A stretch of 30,673 nt of DNA from Candidatus Norongarragalinales archaeon (GTDB taxonomy: Archaea; Micrarchaeota; Micrarchaeia; Norongarragalinales; Norongarragalinaceae): contig DATDSY010000078.1 in the NCBI GenBank assembly GCA_035291125.1, forward strand, positions 1 through 30,673, in the 5' to 3' direction. This document shows, piece after piece, positions 1 to 6,738 of this stretch. The notes under the pieces are model-generated. The model had not been told where the DNA came from. It saw only the letters and a program-made list of their open reading frames with translations, and did no database searches. The position numbers and the translations under genes were made by a program. Within the stretch, counting starts at the first letter, position 1. Each line of letters begins with the position of its first letter.

Positions 1-2853
1 ACCGAGGCGATTACGCGCAATTCTCACGAATTCCGGCCGTTAGGCATAGGCTACGCCAACCTCGGCGCGCTGCTGATGAGCGAAGGCTTGGCGTACGACG
101 GCGACGACGGAAGGAATTTCGCTGCAGCGATAACGGCGTTGCTGAGCGGCCACGCGTATTACGTTTCCACGCTCATCGCCAAAAAGCTCGGTGCATTCGG
201 CGGTTATGCGGCAAACGAAAAGCCGTTTTTGAATGTGATTTCCATGCACCGCGACGCTGCATACTCGATTCCAGAGGAAAACGTGGACCAAAACGTCTTG
301 CGCGAGGCGAGGGAAGCGTGGGATGCGGCGTTGGAAAGCGGAAAGAAAAACGGGTTCCGCAACTCGCAGATTTCGGTACTCGCGCCCACGGGCTGTCTTG
401 TTGGCGATTCCCTAGTTTCCACTGATAGAGGGCTGGTAAGGCTATCCACACTTGGAAACGCAAACGGCGACAGGTGGCAGGACGTTGATTTCGCAGTTTC
501 AACAGATGAAGGCAACAAACGCGCGACAAAATTCTTTATCAACGGGGTTGAAGCGACGCGAAAAATCAAGACTTCGGCGGGCTATGAAATACAGGGAACG
601 CTGAAGCACAAGATAAAAGTTGTAGACAAGCAATCCGGCAAGCTCGTTTGGAAAAAGTTTGCGGAAGTCGAAAAAGGCGACGTGGTGCCCCTCGCACTCA
701 ACACAATCATAGGCGACCCCAAGGCGGTTGCGCTGCCGCCGCTCGGCGAATATTATTGGGCAGGAAATTCGGAAGCAAAAGTTCCGAGAAACGTCACGCC
801 AGAACTTGCAGAACTCGTCGGCTATTTCATGGGCGACGGAAGCTTGCATAGCAAAGGCCTGCGCTTCTGCGTTTCGCAAGAAGACCAAGACGTGGTCGCC
901 CACTTGGCCGAATTGGTTAAAAAACTTTTCAACTTGGACGCGCATGTTTCACAGCAAACGGGATATATCGAAGTGGCAGTCCACAACGTTCCGCTAGTAA
1001 TATGGTGGGAAGCGTGCGGTTTTGCAAAAAAACCGCACGATGACGGCGGAACTGGCAAGGGTTACACGCCGCACATTCCGGACTCAATTCTCTACGCGAA
1101 CGACAAGAAAGTATACTCCGCATTCCTGCGGGGGCTTTTCGAGGCGGATGGAACGGTCACCAACGGCGCGCCCACGTGGACTACGGCATGCAAATCTTTT
1201 TCCAACGACGTCAAGAGCATGATGTTGGCGCTAGGGTATCCGACTACGACCAAAATAGACGTAAGCGGATGGGGACAGTCGGACATTTACGCGACGAGGA
1301 TACGCAACTTTTCATTCAACACGCAGTTCCTCAACGAAATCGGCTTCATTGGAATGAGGAAGACGAAGCTCGTCGCAGTGCAGTCGGCATACCAAGCGGG
1401 CAAGAATGATTTGATATACTTGCCGTCCGATGTGGCTTGCAACCAAAACGCAAGCGAAAGCTTGAGGAAAAATGCAATCCAATCGTTCAAGAGGAATTCT
1501 GCAGTAAGCAGGCAGCTTGCAGTCCAGCTTTACAAGGAAATCCACGACGAGCGGCTTGTGCAATCCATGAAATTCTTTTACGACGCCGTGGGCTCTAACG
1601 AGGACGGCGGAGAACAGCCGACTTTCGACTTGTCCGTCCCCGAGAACGTCACTTACACCGCAAACGGCTTCGTAAGCCACAACACCATCGGATTCCTGAT
1701 GGACTGCGACACCACGGGCGTGGAGCCCGACATCGCATTGATCAAGTACAAGTGGCTCGTGGGCGGGGGTCTCATGAAAATCGTCAACACCACGGTTCCC
1801 CTTGCGTTGGAAAAGCTGGGGTACAAGCAAAACGAAATCGTCGACATCATGGGTTATTTGAACGAGCACGAGACCATCGAAGGAGCTCCGCACTTGAAGC
1901 AGGCGCACTTGCCTGTTTTCGACTGCGCGTTCAAGCCTTCGAAAGGCATTCGCTCGATACAATACCTCGGCCACGTGCGCATGATGGCCGCGGTCCAGCC
2001 TTTCATCAGCGGGGCAATAAGCAAAACGGTTAACCTTCCGGCTGATGCTACTGCGGGTGACATTGAAAACGCGTACATGCAGGCGTGGAAGGGCGGGTTG
2101 AAGGCGATTGCAATATACCGAGACGGTTCCAAGCGAACTCAGCCTTTGACTACTTCGAAAACCGAGTCGAAAGCGCGTGGCGCTGAAGAGCGGATAGTAT
2201 ACATGCCCATGCGCCAGCGGTTGCCTGACGAACGCCAGGCAATAACTCACAAGTTTGCCATCGCCGGGCACGAAGGCTATATTACGGTGGGTTTGTATGA
2301 AGACGGGAGGCCTGGAGAGCTGTTCGTGACAATGGCGAAAGAAGGGAGCACGATATCGGGTTTGATGGACGCTTTTTCCACAGCCGTTTCCATCGCGCTG
2401 CAGTACGGCGTTCCGCTCAAGGTGTTGGCGAAAAAATTCAGCAACATGCGCTTCGAACCTTCGGGAGTCACGGGCAACGAGCAAATCCGGTTTGCGAAAA
2501 GCATTACCGACTACATTTTCAAGTGGCTGGCGTTCAAGTTCCTGGGAGACGGGGATTTGGAAGACTTGGGCTTCAACCCGGAAGAACGCAATTCCCTGCA
2601 GACCAAGCTCGACGCTTCGCTGCACAGGACTCTCGCCGACAAAGTCACCCCGCAATATTCCGAAAGCGGGGTTCCGACCGAGAAGATTTTGAAGGACGAG
2701 TCGAAAGTGCGGTTTGTGGAGCAAGGCAAGGAAGAGAAAACTTTCGAAAACCAGAGCGACGCGCCCGTGTGCGACGACTGCGGAAGCATCATGGTGAGAA
2801 GCGGCTCGTGCTACAAGTGCTTCAACTGCGGCTCGACCAGCGGATGCTCGTAA
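1..2853 (+). CDS. nrdJ: Class II (adenosylcobalamin-dependent) ribonucleotide reductase, 5'-truncated by the window edge, intein-containing
   Basis: Frame is open from base 1 (TEAITRNSHEFRPLGIGYANLGALLM...). Motifs: RPLGIGYANLG, VLAPTG|TIGFLMDCDTTGVEPD, QPFISGAISKTVNLP, GLKAIAIYRDGSK. C-terminal TSCPD-like region (GYITVGLYEDGRPGELF, FEPSG) and a CxxC...CxxC...GCS tail. Confidence 0.95.
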   Translation, partial: TEAITRNSHEFRPLGIGYANLGALLMSEGLAYDGDDGRNFAAAITALLSGHAYYVSTLIAKKLGAFGGYAANEKPFLNVISMHRDAAYSIPEENVDQNVLREAREAWDAALESGKKNGFRNSQISVLAPTGCLVGDSLVSTDRGLVRLSTLGNANGDRWQDVDFAVSTDEGNKRATKFFINGVEATRKIKTSAGYEIQGTLKHKIKVVDKQSGKLVWKKFAEVEKGDVVPLALNTIIGDPKAVALPPLGEYYWAGNSEAKVPRNVTPELAELVGYFMGDGSLHSKGLRFCVSQEDQDVVAHLAELVKKLFNLDAHVSQQTGYIEVAVHNVPLVIWWEACGFAKKPHDDGGTGKGYTPHIPDSILYANDKKVYSAFLRGLFEADGTVTNGAPTWTTACKSFSNDVKSMMLALGYPTTTKIDVSGWGQSDIYATRIRNFSFNTQFLNEIGFIGMRKTKLVAVQSAYQAGKNDLIYLPSDVACNQNASESLRKNAIQSFKRNSAVSRQLAVQLYKEIHDERLVQSMKFFYDAVGSNEDGGEQPTFDLSVPENVTYTANGFVSHNTIGFLMDCDTTGVEPDIALIKYKWLVGGGLMKIVNTTVPLALEKLGYKQNEIVDIMGYLNEHETIEGAPHLKQAHLPVFDCAFKPSKGIRSIQYLGHVRMMAAVQPFISGAISKTVNLPADATAGDIENAYMQAWKGGLKAIAIYRDGSKRTQPLTTSKTESKARGAEERIVYMPMRQRLPDERQAITHKFAIAGHEGYITVGLYEDGRPGELFVTMAKEGSTISGLMDAFSTAVSIALQYGVPLKVLAKKFSNMRFEPSGVTGNEQIRFAKSITDYIFKWLAFKFLGDGDLEDLGFNPEERNSLQTKLDASLHRTLADKVTPQYSESGVPTEKILKDESKVRFVEQGKEEKTFENQSDAPVCDDCGSIMVRSGSCYKCFNCGSTSGCS
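394..1683 (+). mobile_element. Intein (430 aa) with LAGLIDADG homing endonuclease, inserted in the RNR APTG|T motif
   Basis: Starts CLVGDSLV (Cys1), ends YTANGFVSHN followed by Thr. LAGLIDADG blocks LVGYFMGDGS and FLRGLFEADGT. Removing it restores APTG-TIGFLMDC. Confidence 0.95.
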
Positions 2854-2881
2854 ACGCTTTTTATCCGGGGGGGCAAAGGCA

Positions 2882-3397
2882 ATGGCAGGAAAGATTTACA
2901 CCAAGACCGGCGACGAGGGCTATACTAAAACAATGGCCGGCGAAAAGCTCGCCAAAAACGATGCGGTGGTCATAGCTAACGGCAAAATCGATTCGCTGCA
3001 AGCTTCGCTCGACGCTGCCCGCCTGCAATGCACGCAAGACAAGAGCCTTGCGGACAAGATTGATTGGGTGCAGGAAAAGCTGTGGCAAAGCGGCGGGGAA
3101 GTTTCCCTCGGAAGAACGGGGGGAATCGTGAAAAACCCGGTAACGCAGAAAGACGTGGAAAAACTAGAAGAGTGGATTGACGGGTATTGCGAAGGCAAGG
3201 AATTCCGCCAGTTCGTCCGCTTTCACTCTGCGAAGGCCATTGCGTTGAACGAATCGCGAGTGCGCTGCAGGGAAGCGGAAACCGCGCTCTTGCCTTTGCT
3301 CAACAAGCGGATAACGAGCGAAACGTTCAGGTTTTTCAACCGCCTGGGGGATTTTATTTACGCTGCTGCATGCGATTGTGAAGGCGCAGGGAACTGA
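2882..3397 (+). CDS. pduO: ATP:cob(I)alamin adenosyltransferase, PduO type
   Basis: N-terminal KIYTKTGDEG, then RVRCREAET and FFNRLGDFIY, resembling the PduO RxxxRRAER and YLNRLSD motifs. Directly follows nrdJ. Confidence 0.85.
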   Translation: MAGKIYTKTGDEGYTKTMAGEKLAKNDAVVIANGKIDSLQASLDAARLQCTQDKSLADKIDWVQEKLWQSGGEVSLGRTGGIVKNPVTQKDVEKLEEWIDGYCEGKEFRQFVRFHSAKAIALNESRVRCREAETALLPLLNKRITSETFRFFNRLGDFIYAAACDCEGAGN

Positions 3398-3402
3398 AGA
3401 AA

Positions 3403-3864
3403 ATGAAAAAAACATTTTTGGTTGCGGCGTTGCTGCTGGCACTGCTTTTTGCGGGATGCGTTTCGCAAGGCCAGCCTTCAGCCTCGCCTAGCGCAACAGC
3501 CGAGCTTTCGCAAGCGGCTACGCCGACAATTACACCTAGTCCAACTATCGAAAGCGGATTGCTTGAAATAAACGTGATAATCAACGCGCCCCCGCGCGAC
3601 TACTTAAAAACCATTCCCGTCGAAGTGGCGGAGGGCGCGAGCGCGCTGGAAGCTTCGGCAAAAGCGGTCGAGATTGGCGTTAAAAACTATTCTTTCGGAG
3701 CATACGTCTTCTCTGTGGACGGCATCAATGAAAGCAACAGCGAAGGCCTGTACTGGCAGTTCTATTTCAACGGCAAGCTCGCGCCCGTGGGAGCAAACGA
3801 CTTCAAGCTCTCGCAAAAAGGCATTCTCGAATGGCGTTTGGAAAAACCCCAGTTGGGCGGCTGA
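3403..3864 (+). CDS. Lipoprotein with a DUF4430 / transcobalamin beta-domain-like C-terminus
   Basis: Lipobox-like signal (MKKTFLVAALLLALLFAGC), Pro/Thr linker, then FVFSVDGINES...YWQFYFNGKLAPVGANDFKL, typical of DUF4430-like domains. Confidence 0.75.
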   Translation: MKKTFLVAALLLALLFAGCVSQGQPSASPSATAELSQAATPTITPSPTIESGLLEINVIINAPPRDYLKTIPVEVAEGASALEASAKAVEIGVKNYSFGAYVFSVDGINESNSEGLYWQFYFNGKLAPVGANDFKLSQKGILEWRLEKPQLGG

Positions 3865-3887
3865 AGCCGCAGCGAAGCAAAAAAAAA

Positions 3888-4502
3888 CTATTTTATTGCC
3901 TTTTCCAAAATCAGGAACGCGGCCCACGCGCCTCTCTCGCGGTCCAACGCCCTTTTCGCGAAACTCAAAAGGAAAACGCTGTTTTCGCGCGGCGTGAAGG
4001 CGGATGAAAGCAAAACCGAATCTTTCCGCGCGACCGCGTCGCGCGTTCCCAAAAACAAGAACCGGCCGTCCTTGAGTGAGAGGGAGAGCAATCCGTCGGA
4101 ACCGGCTTTCACCGCTGCATCGCGCACTGCTATGGAAACGCTGACCGAAGGTTCTGCTGCGACCGAACACTGCAAGCAGAAAGAAGGGCGTTCGAAAGTC
4201 GAGTAAAGCGGGGGCAATTGCTTCGCTCCGCCAACGCGCGCGCAAAGCCTTTCGAACAGCCGCACGCCCTTTTCCGAAAGCATGCTTCCCGCGCGTATTT
4301 TCCGTGCCAATCCGCGTGCCTCTAGAAACGCGGCTATCGAACGCACTGTACCTTCGCCCAAGTCTAGCGACTCTGCCAAATCCTTCCTTCCCACGAGCTT
4401 CTTCCGCCCGAGAATCCAGAATGCGCGCAGCACGTCTTCGAAAACGAATTTCGGCATCGGCCCGAAAGCCTTTTCCTCGGGCTTCAAAAGCGAAAAGTCC
4501 AT
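3888..4502 (-). CDS. Archaeal winged-HTH protein, PH0730/DUF4443-like; putative transcription regulator
   Basis: N-terminal HTH (VGRKDLAESLDLGEGTVRSIAAFLEARGLA...GSMLSEKG) plus an alpha/beta C-terminal domain (VRDAAVKAGSDG). Family recalled by pattern only. Confidence 0.6.
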   Translation of the reverse strand: MDFSLLKPEEKAFGPMPKFVFEDVLRAFWILGRKKLVGRKDLAESLDLGEGTVRSIAAFLEARGLARKIRAGSMLSEKGVRLFERLCARVGGAKQLPPLYSTFERPSFCLQCSVAAEPSVSVSIAVRDAAVKAGSDGLLSLSLKDGRFLFLGTRDAVARKDSVLLSSAFTPRENSVFLLSFAKRALDRERGAWAAFLILEKAIK

Positions 4503-4525
4503 AACGCAAACAAGCGGTTTCGTGC

Positions 4526-4571
4526 TTTTAAACTGGATGCATCATCCAAACGAATTAATATTGGATGCATC
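4526..4571. promoter_or_regulatory. Bidirectional TATA-like box plus palindromic operator-like repeats
   Basis: TTTTAAA at 4526-4532 lies ~24 nt from the ATG of the minus-strand HTH gene. TGGATGCATC occurs twice (4534-4543, 4562-4571). CATCCAA-N11-TTGGATG is an inverted repeat. Confidence 0.55.
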
Positions 4572-4603
4572 GAAGTCCGTATCCGATTACGCAAGGTGGG
4601 TTT

Positions 4604-6217
4604 ATGGACAGCAAAACTGCAATCGCAATAGTCTTTGCCGCGCTCGCGGCATTCTCAATCCCTGCACACGCTTTTTCCACCACTGCTGCGTTTGCGTGGC
4701 TTGACTCCCACCACACCGTCGGCTCTTACGGCTTTGCTGGCGCGAACGCGCTTGCGCTCACGGCTTTGGTAGAGTGGAGCGAAAACGCGCAGTTGCAGTC
4801 GCAGCTCGCAAACGCCATTAAGGCGGACCTGAACGACAACTCTTCCTGGAATTGGGCTGAGGCGGACTTGCCGTCGATTCAATTCTGGGCTTTGCACAAA
4901 ACAGGATTCGCTTCAACTGGAATCGATTCTGCAACGCTGTCGCAAAAGATTTTGGCTTTCAAAGGCCAGCATGGCGGGTTCACGGGATTGCAGGAGTGCG
5001 TTGCGAACTGCACCGACCCGAACTGGCAAAACCAAGTGTGGCAGCCCGTCGAAACCACTACAGATACAGCGTTGGTTTTGCTTGCGCTCGAAAGCGCAGG
5101 CACGCTGGATTCGCAAACCAAAAATGATGCCATTGCATTCCTTAGCACTTTGCAAAATGAAGACGGCTCGTTCAAGCAGTCTCTTTCCACCGGCGAAACT
5201 TCGCTCTACGCGTTGGGGCCTGATTTCGTTTCAACCACTTCGCTCGCACTGCAAGCAATGCAGCAAACCGGCTTCGGAGGAACGCCTGAGGCTGCAAAGG
5301 CAGTCGCTTTCCTAAAGCAGAAAGCCCGCTCGTGCTTCGGAAATTCCGGGAGCGTGTACGGGCCTTCGCGCGCGGCAGTCGCTTTCGCAAAATCGGGCGA
5401 AAACGCGTTTGCATCGTCAGCAGCAGCTTATGCAGCGCTCTCGCAAAAGCAGGACGGCGGTTTTGCCGACCCGCTTCGCTCGCAGTCCGACTCCAACGCC
5501 ATGGATACGGCAATGGCTTTGCTGGCGGCGAAAAACATTGCTGAAAACGCGGTTGCATGCGCGCCTTTGAGCGCTGCCCTAGCGTACAACACGCCTATTT
5601 TTCCGGGCAATGCGCAGCCCATGCGCATTACTGCAGAGGGGGCGGTGGAAAACGTTTCCTTCACTGTAACAAAGCCTTCCGGAGGGTTCGTCGAATTGCA
5701 GGCGCAGCAAACCCAGCAAGGGGTTTTCGAAACCGTTTTTTCCAACACAGCGGAAGCGGGGAATTATTCCATTCTCGCGACGATCATAGCCATGCAAGGC
5801 GGGAGGCTCGTGAAAAGCGGGGTTTTCGAAGTCAAAAGCGCTTCAGCCTCCCCCACTCCGACGCCCACGCCTACGCCAACACCATCCCCGTCAAACCAGG
5901 AGATAAAGGTCGTGTTTGTAACTCCCTATCCAACCCCCACTGCAACGCCGTCCATAACTCCTACTCCCACGCCTTCGCCAACGCCGCAGGAGCGTGAAAC
6001 TGCGAAGGAAAGCGTTTCGACAAAGCAAAACGAGGAAGCGACTACGCCGTCTGGCTTGACAGCGCTTGCCGCTGCAAAGCCGAACGCATGGTTTTCATTC
6101 AGCGTCGACGAAAAAAACATAGCGCTTTCACTCAACCCCATCGTTTTTATTAGCCTGCTCGCCCTAGGGATTATTTTCTCGTTATACAGGAAATGGAATA
6201 AAGTGAATTGGAAATGA
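4604..6217 (+). CDS. Secreted, C-terminally anchored prenyltransferase/squalene-oxidase-repeat (alpha/alpha barrel) protein
   Basis: ATG at 4604 after an AAGGTGGG RBS. Signal peptide (FSIPAHA|F). Repeats FKGQHGGF, LQNEDGSF, SQKQDGGF with DTALVLLAL, STTSLALQAM, DTAMALLA. Then a beta-rich domain, PT linker, C-terminal TM and basic tail. Confidence 0.75.
   Translation: MDSKTAIAIVFAALAAFSIPAHAFSTTAAFAWLDSHHTVGSYGFAGANALALTALVEWSENAQLQSQLANAIKADLNDNSSWNWAEADLPSIQFWALHKTGFASTGIDSATLSQKILAFKGQHGGFTGLQECVANCTDPNWQNQVWQPVETTTDTALVLLALESAGTLDSQTKNDAIAFLSTLQNEDGSFKQSLSTGETSLYALGPDFVSTTSLALQAMQQTGFGGTPEAAKAVAFLKQKARSCFGNSGSVYGPSRAAVAFAKSGENAFASSAAAYAALSQKQDGGFADPLRSQSDSNAMDTAMALLAAKNIAENAVACAPLSAALAYNTPIFPGNAQPMRITAEGAVENVSFTVTKPSGGFVELQAQQTQQGVFETVFSNTAEAGNYSILATIIAMQGGRLVKSGVFEVKSASASPTPTPTPTPTPSPSNQEIKVVFVTPYPTPTATPSITPTPTPSPTPQERETAKESVSTKQNEEATTPSGLTALAAAKPNAWFSFSVDEKNIALSLNPIVFISLLALGIIFSLYRKWNKVNWK
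5848..5985 (+). repeat. Pro/Thr/Ser low-complexity linker (SPTPTPTPTPTPSPS ... TPTPTPSPTP)
   Basis: Read directly in the translation; codons vary between units. Confidence 0.85.
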
Positions 6218-6738
6218 AAATTCTCGACAATGCAAAATTCGCATTAGGACTGGCATTGTGCGTGCTGGCAAGGCTATTCACAGTCGCGCCCAACGTCGAG
6301 CCGATAATGGGCTTTACAATGCCTTACGCCAAGAAGTACGGCAAATACGCCGGCTTGGCCTTCGCGCTCATCGCAATGGTTTCAATCGACTTTTTCACCC
6401 AACGGCTGGGATTGTGGACGCTTTACACCGCAGGCGCTTACGCGATAATCGGCTTTGCGGCTGGAAAGTTTTTCGAAACGCGCAAATCCAATCGCACAAA
6501 CTTTCTCACATTCGCTGTCGCAGGCACGCTTTTCTTTGACGTTGCAACGGCATTGCTGTTCGGATGGCAATTCCGCCAGCCCCTCGAGCTTACGCTGTTG
6601 GGGCAAATTCCATTCACCGCAAGCCACCTGCTTTCGAACTCTATTGCAGCTTTGCTCCTGTCACCCGCGATAGCGTGGGCTTTGGACCGAACCCCCTCGC
6701 CGGCGCTTTCACCCGATGCGGCTAAAAGGATAGCTTAA
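6214..6738 (+). CDS. ECF transporter substrate-binding (S) component, CbrT-like (probable cobalamin specificity)
   Basis: ~174 aa with about 6 hydrophobic segments. LARLFTVAPNVEPI resembles the CbrT-type PNV(Q/E)P motif. ATG overlaps the upstream stop (ATGA at 6214-6217). Confidence 0.7.
   Translation: MKILDNAKFALGLALCVLARLFTVAPNVEPIMGFTMPYAKKYGKYAGLAFALIAMVSIDFFTQRLGLWTLYTAGAYAIIGFAAGKFFETRKSNRTNFLTFAVAGTLFFDVATALLFGWQFRQPLELTLLGQIPFTASHLLSNSIAALLLSPAIAWALDRTPSPALSPDAAKRIA

Follow-up and report, generated by a model that had tools for sequence, protein, structure and literature searches.

The window analysed here is a stretch of 30,673 nucleotides from contig DATDSY010000078.1, assigned to a Candidatus Norongarragalinales archaeon. 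Near its 5' end it encodes a small lipoprotein with a DUF4430 domain (3403-3864), called the beta protein below, and a separate, membrane-anchored alpha6/alpha6 barrel (4604-6217), called the toroid protein. On balance we lean towards the view that a B12-auxotrophic DPANN archaeon (Micrarchaeota-type) uses these two proteins outside the cell to capture cobamides for a salvage system. From homology and gene neighbourhood we infer that B12 is the ligand, that the two proteins close around it in trans as a ternary clamp, and that it is handed on to CbrT, a transporter component encoded directly downstream.

The mechanism we envisage would begin with the short-tethered lipoprotein (linker of ~30 residues), which would bind the corrinoid in the manner of the transcobalamin (TC) beta domain. 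The long-stalked, non-catalytic toroid, held by its middle domain and ~86 linker residues, would cover the other face of the ligand. The outcome would be a two-chain clamp that depends on its ligand, comparable to IF30.Cbl.IF20, the complex formed by cleaved intrinsic factor (IF), whose fragments IF30 and IF20 still bind cobalamin (Cbl) tightly together (PMC6257451). The cobamide would then pass to the CbrT-like substrate-binding component (S-component) of an energy-coupling factor (ECF) transporter, presumably co-translated with the toroid, and be imported via a shared ECF module; PduO would adenosylate it and the class II ribonucleotide reductase (RNR) would use the product. A more specific version, possible but advanced here tentatively, is that a toroid, having lost the beta domain once tethered to it, engages the stand-alone lipoprotein in trans with the corrinoid as glue, and that the pair acts as a membrane-anchored "proto-transcobalamin" of two chains from which the ECF S-component receives B12. 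If this is true, the pair would be the first experimentally tractable prokaryotic receptor of the transcobalamin type, and the TC/IF architecture would amount to a toroid like that of squalene-hopene cyclase (SHC) plus an SLBB domain, exchangeable between cis and trans. Complex prediction for toroid residues 22-320 and the beta domain, run without ligand, gave a score of 0.02, which is evidence neither way.

The lipoprotein and the toroid protein

The two genes and the parts of the larger product are as follows.

3403-3864, plus strand: stand-alone transcobalamin-beta-like (DUF4430/SLBB) lipoprotein, 153 aa (PF14478, E 2.5e-10)
4604-6217, plus strand: secreted, C-terminally anchored alpha6/alpha6 toroid protein, 537 aa (PF13243, E 6.6e-8; PF00432, E 4.7e-6)
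4604-4672, plus strand: signal peptide of the toroid protein
4673-5563, plus strand: toroid
~5576-5878, plus strand: beta-rich middle domain
5879-6136, plus strand: Pro/Thr-rich stalk
6137-6187, plus strand: transmembrane helix, followed by a basic tail

An earlier, sequence-only reading of this DNA had recognized a DUF4430-like lipoprotein, a separate barrel protein, and on each of them a Pro/Thr stalk with a membrane anchor of its own. These observations are confirmed, while its interpretation of them, a transcobalamin whose two halves assemble on the cell surface around B12, is partly supported.

The beta protein matches the Pfam family DUF4430 with 41.1 bits (cut-off 23.8). It starts with a signal peptide and the lipobox LFAGC (3403-3462, Cys20), the Cys of which is conserved among homologues; a linker of ~31 residues, 71% of them P, T, S or A (3463-3555), leads to the beta domain proper (3556-3861). 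The AlphaFold2 (AF2) model of this domain, built from a 12-sequence alignment, has a pLDDT of 92 and the DSSP order E E H E E E E, with a helix at residues 32-39 followed by a hairpin at 42-56. When the model was compared with the PDB by Foldseek, the best 19 matches were all either beta domains of TC, IF and haptocorrin (HC) or 3u7z, a DUF4430 structure (query TM-score 0.75-0.84), after which the query TM-score falls to 0.43. The family profile also retrieved TCN1 (E 1.5e-5) and IF (E 6.7e-4) from the PDB sequences. Profile and model comparisons thus support the assignment of the beta protein as a true homologue of the TC/IF/HC beta domain.

For the toroid protein we favour the start codon at 4604 over that at 4565, because the near-identical homologue P0001 has 537 aa and because GGTGG precedes the ATG at 4604. 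The toroid scores 26.7 bits against PF00432, barely above the cut-off of 26.5, and its AF2 model, built from a 45-sequence alignment, shows 12 main helices in an alpha6/alpha6 barrel (pLDDT 92); the toroid has the alpha/alpha fold with QW-type repeats seen in class II terpene cyclases. In sequence and in fold the toroid is best matched by SHC, which is the nearest, drimenyl-diphosphate synthase, prenyltransferase beta subunits and the thioester domains (TEDs) of A2M and C3. Taken at face value, these matches would make the barrel either an enzyme, be it a class II terpene cyclase or a prenyltransferase, or a thioester TED protein, and in each case one that has nothing to do with its DUF4430 neighbour, an explanation to which we give hardly any credence. 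When the profile of the family is aligned to that of SHC, D374-V-D376-D377-T-A of the cyclase faces S-S-V-D-T-A in the family (with S or D at the first position) and T-T-T-D-T-A in the window, and the position of the general acid D376 is V, T, I, A, L or P, never Asp, in 45/45 family members. Across the same 45 sequences neither the D.DD motif nor the thioester motif C[GA]EQ occurs even once. As the DxDD general acid is missing, the toroid is not a cyclase, and the absence of the two motifs rules it out both as a terpene cyclase and as a TED protein. It is also secreted and tethered outside the cell, strictly co-occurs with DUF4430, and is fused to DUF4430 in relatives. The sequence-only reading had named a catalytic cyclase barrel among the findings that would tell against it; the fold is indeed like that of an enzyme, yet the protein has lost the catalytic acid and lies outside the cell.

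The strings STTSLALQAM and FGNSGSVYG, which the same reading had likened to a conserved region of transcobalamin, are present in the toroid protein. Their resemblance to that region is a conjecture; in the alignment with SHC the STT.LAL-type motif falls on a motif repeated in the inner helices, so it is generic to this toroid superfamily. Three features had been overlooked: a beta-rich domain of ~100 aa between toroid and stalk (about aa 313-430), the CbrT-like gene at 6214-6738, and the overlap of its start codon with the stop codon of the toroid gene. We considered the middle domain as a decayed DUF4430 and ruled this out (hmmsearch scores near 0, hhalign probability 0.7%). Toroid residues 126-151 (4979-5056) form an extended beta-hairpin with C132 and C136, placed before the helix that matches the DxDD helix of SHC. 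The hairpin is typical of the toroid clade of the window, most other members of the family having a shorter one, and it may serve as a lid or make contact with the ligand.

Predicted cobamide transport and use at the locus

The remaining features of the locus (1-6738) are listed here in order.

1-2853, plus strand: class II (adenosylcobalamin-dependent) RNR, 3' part, with intein (NF005122, E 2e-213; TIGR02504 (NrdJ_Z), E 2e-64)
2882-3397, plus strand: PduO-type ATP:cob(I)alamin adenosyltransferase (PF01923, E 3e-30; TIGR00636, E 3e-23)
3888-4502, minus strand: PH0730-like/DUF4443 helix-turn-helix regulator (PF22167, E 1e-8; PF21715; PF14544)
4503-4603, no strand: divergent promoter region (direct reading and repeat scan)
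6214-6738, plus strand: CbrT-like (DUF6580) ECF S-component, 175 aa (match to 6fnp_A)

The gene order is thus nrdJ, pduO, DUF4430 lipoprotein, regulator (minus strand), toroid gene and CbrT-like gene. The genes nrdJ, pduO and that of the beta protein are tightly packed, with 5 nt between the pduO stop and the beta ATG, and the TGA of the toroid gene overlaps the ATG of the CbrT-like gene (ATGA at 6214-6217). The order NrdR-like, NrdJ, PduO, DUF4430, divergent regulator, toroid, CbrT-like and GDH is kept in contigs whose toroids are only 50% identical. The context is unusually clean, in that the B12-dependent sole RNR found, the adenosyltransferase, the beta protein, the toroid and the CbrT homologue occupy two tight operons.

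The product of 6214-6738 matches 6fnp_A, both with the single sequence (phmmer E 7e-5) and with the family profile (E 1.2e-6 over 145 positions); its homologues are named DUF6580 or ECF S component. The structure 6fnp is that of ECF-CbrT, the vitamin B12 ECF transporter of Lactobacillus delbrueckii, which, unlike the arrangement proposed here, worked without extra surface proteins (PMC5997447). On this homology we predict that the product of 6214-6738 accepts the corrinoid at the membrane. The genes for EcfA and EcfT form a pair on a separate contig (C57) of the same genome. A single ECF ATPase gene was seen there, and the ECF module may use a homodimeric ATPase or have its second ATPase gene elsewhere. 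A 237-aa open reading frame with no NCBIfam match (L002:3-716, i.e. G000:C57) immediately precedes the single genes for EcfA and EcfT.

The window is archaeal DNA, as it encodes TFIIB and the ribosomal proteins S8e and S3Ae, and close homologues of its proteins carry the label Candidatus Micrarchaeota. The source genome is a metagenome-assembled genome of 0.9 Mb in 131 contigs and is 78% complete. We found CobS and CbiB, the enzymes of corrin completion that were searched for, neither in it nor in five relatives that are 89-95% complete, and the class I small subunit (R2) and class III RNR were likewise not found in the source genome at its 78% completeness. The class II RNR is the B12 consumer of the locus and the sole RNR found in the genome, and PduO is predicted from its family assignment to convert imported cobalamin to adenosylcobalamin. 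For the synthesis of deoxynucleoside triphosphates the organism apparently depends on importing a complete cobamide, with the incompleteness of the genome as a caveat. The same gene logic is seen on a plasmid of Lactobacillus plantarum that couples NrdJ, adenosyltransferase and CbrVUT (PMC6722938); tblastn searches of plasmids with the toroid and the CbrT-like protein gave no match.

Distribution among relatives and domain fusions

Co-occurrence was analysed in 151 evenly sampled genomes of the phylum, to which the handles G000 etc. refer. The toroid is present in 9 of the 151, all within one order, DUF4430 in these nine and in G018, and a CbrT-like protein in the ten DUF4430 genomes and 13 others, so that 9/9 toroid genomes also carry DUF4430 and CbrT. 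All three are missing in 8 of the 19 genomes of the order, among them congeners of carriers, namely G056 (from the genus of the window) and G142 (genus g12). The genes for beta protein, toroid and CbrT form one cluster in G000, G149, G132, G119 and G126, whereas in G143, G086 and G137 the toroid has a DUF4430 of its own.

The toroid family is small (74 matches in 1.84 billion cluster representatives). A search for fused orthologues, which the sequence-only reading had recommended, was rewarded: Pfam DUF4430 is found in the same chain as the toroid in 11 of 50 members scanned, and a family-specific hidden Markov model detects 12 chains with the toroid followed by DUF4430 and one in the reversed order. 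Overall, fused proteins number 12-13 among about 50-86 relatives, i.e. about a quarter. In the tree of DUF4430 domains all fused copies form one clade and all stand-alone copies another (support 98/94), the latter comprising the beta protein of the window, the second, solo copies of every fused-toroid genome and the G018 copy. By this placement the window beta is an orthologue of the solo, CbrT-associated paralogue and not a fission fragment. Gene fission of a fused form as the origin of the window pair is ruled out for the beta part.

In the unrooted toroid tree fused and unfused forms are interleaved, with 5-6 changes between the states, at least two of them forced by well-supported branches. 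Where the toroid has no beta domain of its own, the solo beta gene adjoins the toroid gene in 5 of 6 genomes, and these toroids belong to three separately supported clades; in fused-toroid genomes it does so in 0 of 3, and in locus L006 gene calling placed no DUF4430 gene closer than 8 kb to the fused one. This adjacency pattern fits trans-complementation, although the numbers are small. As a separate observation, the region downstream of the fused gene in L006 (9848-10621) encodes a 257-aa protein with no Pfam or NCBIfam match and no similarity to the CbrT-like protein.

Several results weigh against the proposed two-chain capture of B12. Ligand binding and contact between the two proteins are both matters that we infer. 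The TC alpha domain has an alpha6/alpha6 fold (PMC6257451), and according to its sequence and model the toroid shares this fold class; membership of the TC alpha family is, however, detected by no tool. PF01122, the TC alpha domain family, gave no match even at E<=10 with four members of the toroid family. TC, IF and HC are absent from the 60 best PDB matches of the toroid profile, and absent also among its top 30-50 structural neighbours (Foldseek against the PDB, a wider structure search, and the Swiss-Prot part of the AlphaFold database). The sampled genomes are related, so that the co-occurrence counts are not independent; despite this kinship, at least two joint gains or losses are required to explain the pattern. 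PduO (PF01923) was not detected in the three fused-type genomes G143, G086 and G137; it occurs in 106 of the 151 genomes of the phylum, a distribution that does not discriminate. The window beta, moreover, belongs to the solo class, which persists even alongside fused toroid-beta proteins. In G137 the solo DUF4430 gene lies directly upstream of a CbrT-like gene (region C49:4476-5610) and the fused toroid is on another contig, and in G018, a genome without a toroid, DUF4430 is again directly upstream of a CbrT-like gene (region C6:14464-15239). Since the solo class stands beside CbrT in these two genomes, the beta protein alone may serve CbrT, which suggests a core pair of DUF4430 and CbrT, with the toroid as an addition.

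This leads to an alternative that we regard as unlikely but worth keeping in mind, according to which the DUF4430 lipoprotein alone binds the corrinoid for CbrT and the toroid works in the same pathway, not as the clamp half of this beta protein. The toroid might then act as a long-stalked distal antenna, either catching corrinoids or removing them from the carriers of others; alternatively, its ligand might be another form of corrinoid. Apart from the arrangements in G018 and G137 and the distinct clades of solo and fused beta domains, it is favoured by the fact that the TC beta domain by itself was crystallised with cyanocobalamin (PDB 5np4). It has more difficulty with the finding that the toroid never occurs without DUF4430 in the nine genomes, with the adjacency of the solo beta gene to toroids that have no beta domain of their own, and with the fusions in relatives, which imply that toroid and beta domain share one ligand.

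Known carriers, candidate ligands and minor features

The two-chain B12 clamp is not a new idea (PMC1796856; bioRxiv 10.1101/864751). Burroughs, Balaji, Iyer and Aravind, who defined the SLBB superfamily in 2007, described bacterial SLBB-toroid fusions in either order. They also noted a second SLBB paralogue, a connection with CbiO/CbiQ-type transport and a lack of B12 synthesis, and predicted B12 scavenging (PMC1796856). The proteins described here resemble theirs in being secreted or anchored, in the second SLBB paralogue, in the ECF link and in hosts without B12 synthesis; theirs are mainly Gram-positive and fused, whereas here the organism is a DPANN archaeon and the toroid, with no beta domain of its own, has a solo beta gene adjacent. 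In Lactobacillus sakei the ECF-like operon lsa1836-1840 encodes the separate beta-like Lsa1839 and alpha-like Lsa1840 "transcobalamin subunits", which were modelled as a heterodimer around heme (bioRxiv 10.1101/864751). By description these are likewise separately encoded beta-like and alpha-like proteins beside ECF genes, but they are bacterial, heme is the proposed ligand, and no NrdJ/PduO context is reported there.

The L. sakei model is one reason to ask whether the pair captures some other ligand, such as heme or another tetrapyrrole, an incomplete corrinoid, or an isoprenoid lipid in the terpene-cyclase-like cavity, which we consider distinctly improbable. Burroughs et al. suspected that archaeal SLBB proteins bind a metabolite other than B12, given that the archaea in question produce B12 themselves (PMC1796856), and CbrUVT has been annotated as an uptake system for cobyrinate diamide (PMC8123684). 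For a lipid one could cite the toroid's nearest folds, which bind polyprenyl substrates. DPANN archaea rely on host lipids. Yet the locus is framed by NrdJ, PduO and the CbrT homologue, which lowers the heme and incomplete-corrinoid options; with CobS and CbiB absent, incomplete corrinoids could not be completed; and the argument of Burroughs et al. concerned archaea that make B12, which the present archaeon apparently cannot do.

Compared with the animal carriers TC, IF and HC (PDB 2bb5, 2pmv, 4kki), the capture pair we propose has the same composition of a small beta (SLBB/DUF4430) domain and an alpha6/alpha6 barrel, and cleaved IF, too, acts as two chains around Cbl (PMC6257451). The archaeal halves are, however, separate membrane-tethered proteins, whereas animal carriers have both domains in one chain; the toroid is no detectable member of PF01122 and has its nearest structures in SHC; and the pair is predicted to serve an ECF transporter in place of endocytosis. 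The toroid also differs from SHC and other class II terpene cyclases (1gsz, 8paj), since the archaeal family has no DxDD general acid, consists of a single toroid domain and is extracellular. We know of no His-on loop or receptor-binding role for the archaeal pair.

In the literature that we searched we found nothing that links Micrarchaeota to such a B12 system. The locus is thus an archaeal (DPANN) extension of a kind of system predicted in bacteria and biochemically undemonstrated; what is newly added are the solo and fused beta paralogues and the pattern of their adjacency. Prokaryotic transcobalamin-like proteins were predicted in 2007, and the literature that we searched contains no demonstration that any of them binds B12. 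The small, soluble ectodomains of the two proteins offer a direct assay of B12 capture, and close relatives that differ in having the beta domain in cis or in trans provide a natural experiment on the assembly of the transcobalamin clamp. The system may also account for the way in which DPANN archaea with reduced genomes acquire a cofactor that they cannot make.

The regulator gene (3888-4502) is divergent from the toroid gene and occupies the same position in L003-L005, which have an unfused toroid, and in L006, which has a fused toroid-DUF4430. An Rfam search of the window returned zero families, so the window contains no B12 riboswitch, and the PH0730-like/DUF4443 protein is a candidate regulator of B12 uptake in a riboswitch-free lineage. 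The intergenic region 4503-4603 contains two copies of TGGATGCATC (4533-4542 and 4562-4571, 29 nt apart), the first of them inside the palindrome TGGATG-N3-CATCCA, together with A/T-rich boxes and the GGTGG ahead of the 4604 ATG. Judging from their sequence and position, the TGGATGCATC repeats could be the operator.

The RNR intein (~394-1686) has an insert of the size of a homing endonuclease, and NCBIfam models for the intein N- and C-terminal parts and for intein-containing proteins match residues 132-564. On the 3' side of the locus, the region 8823-17879 encodes large secreted or anchored proteins with Pro/Thr/Ser linkers (412, 194, 681 and 1563 aa), which fit a surface-rich, episymbiotic lifestyle.

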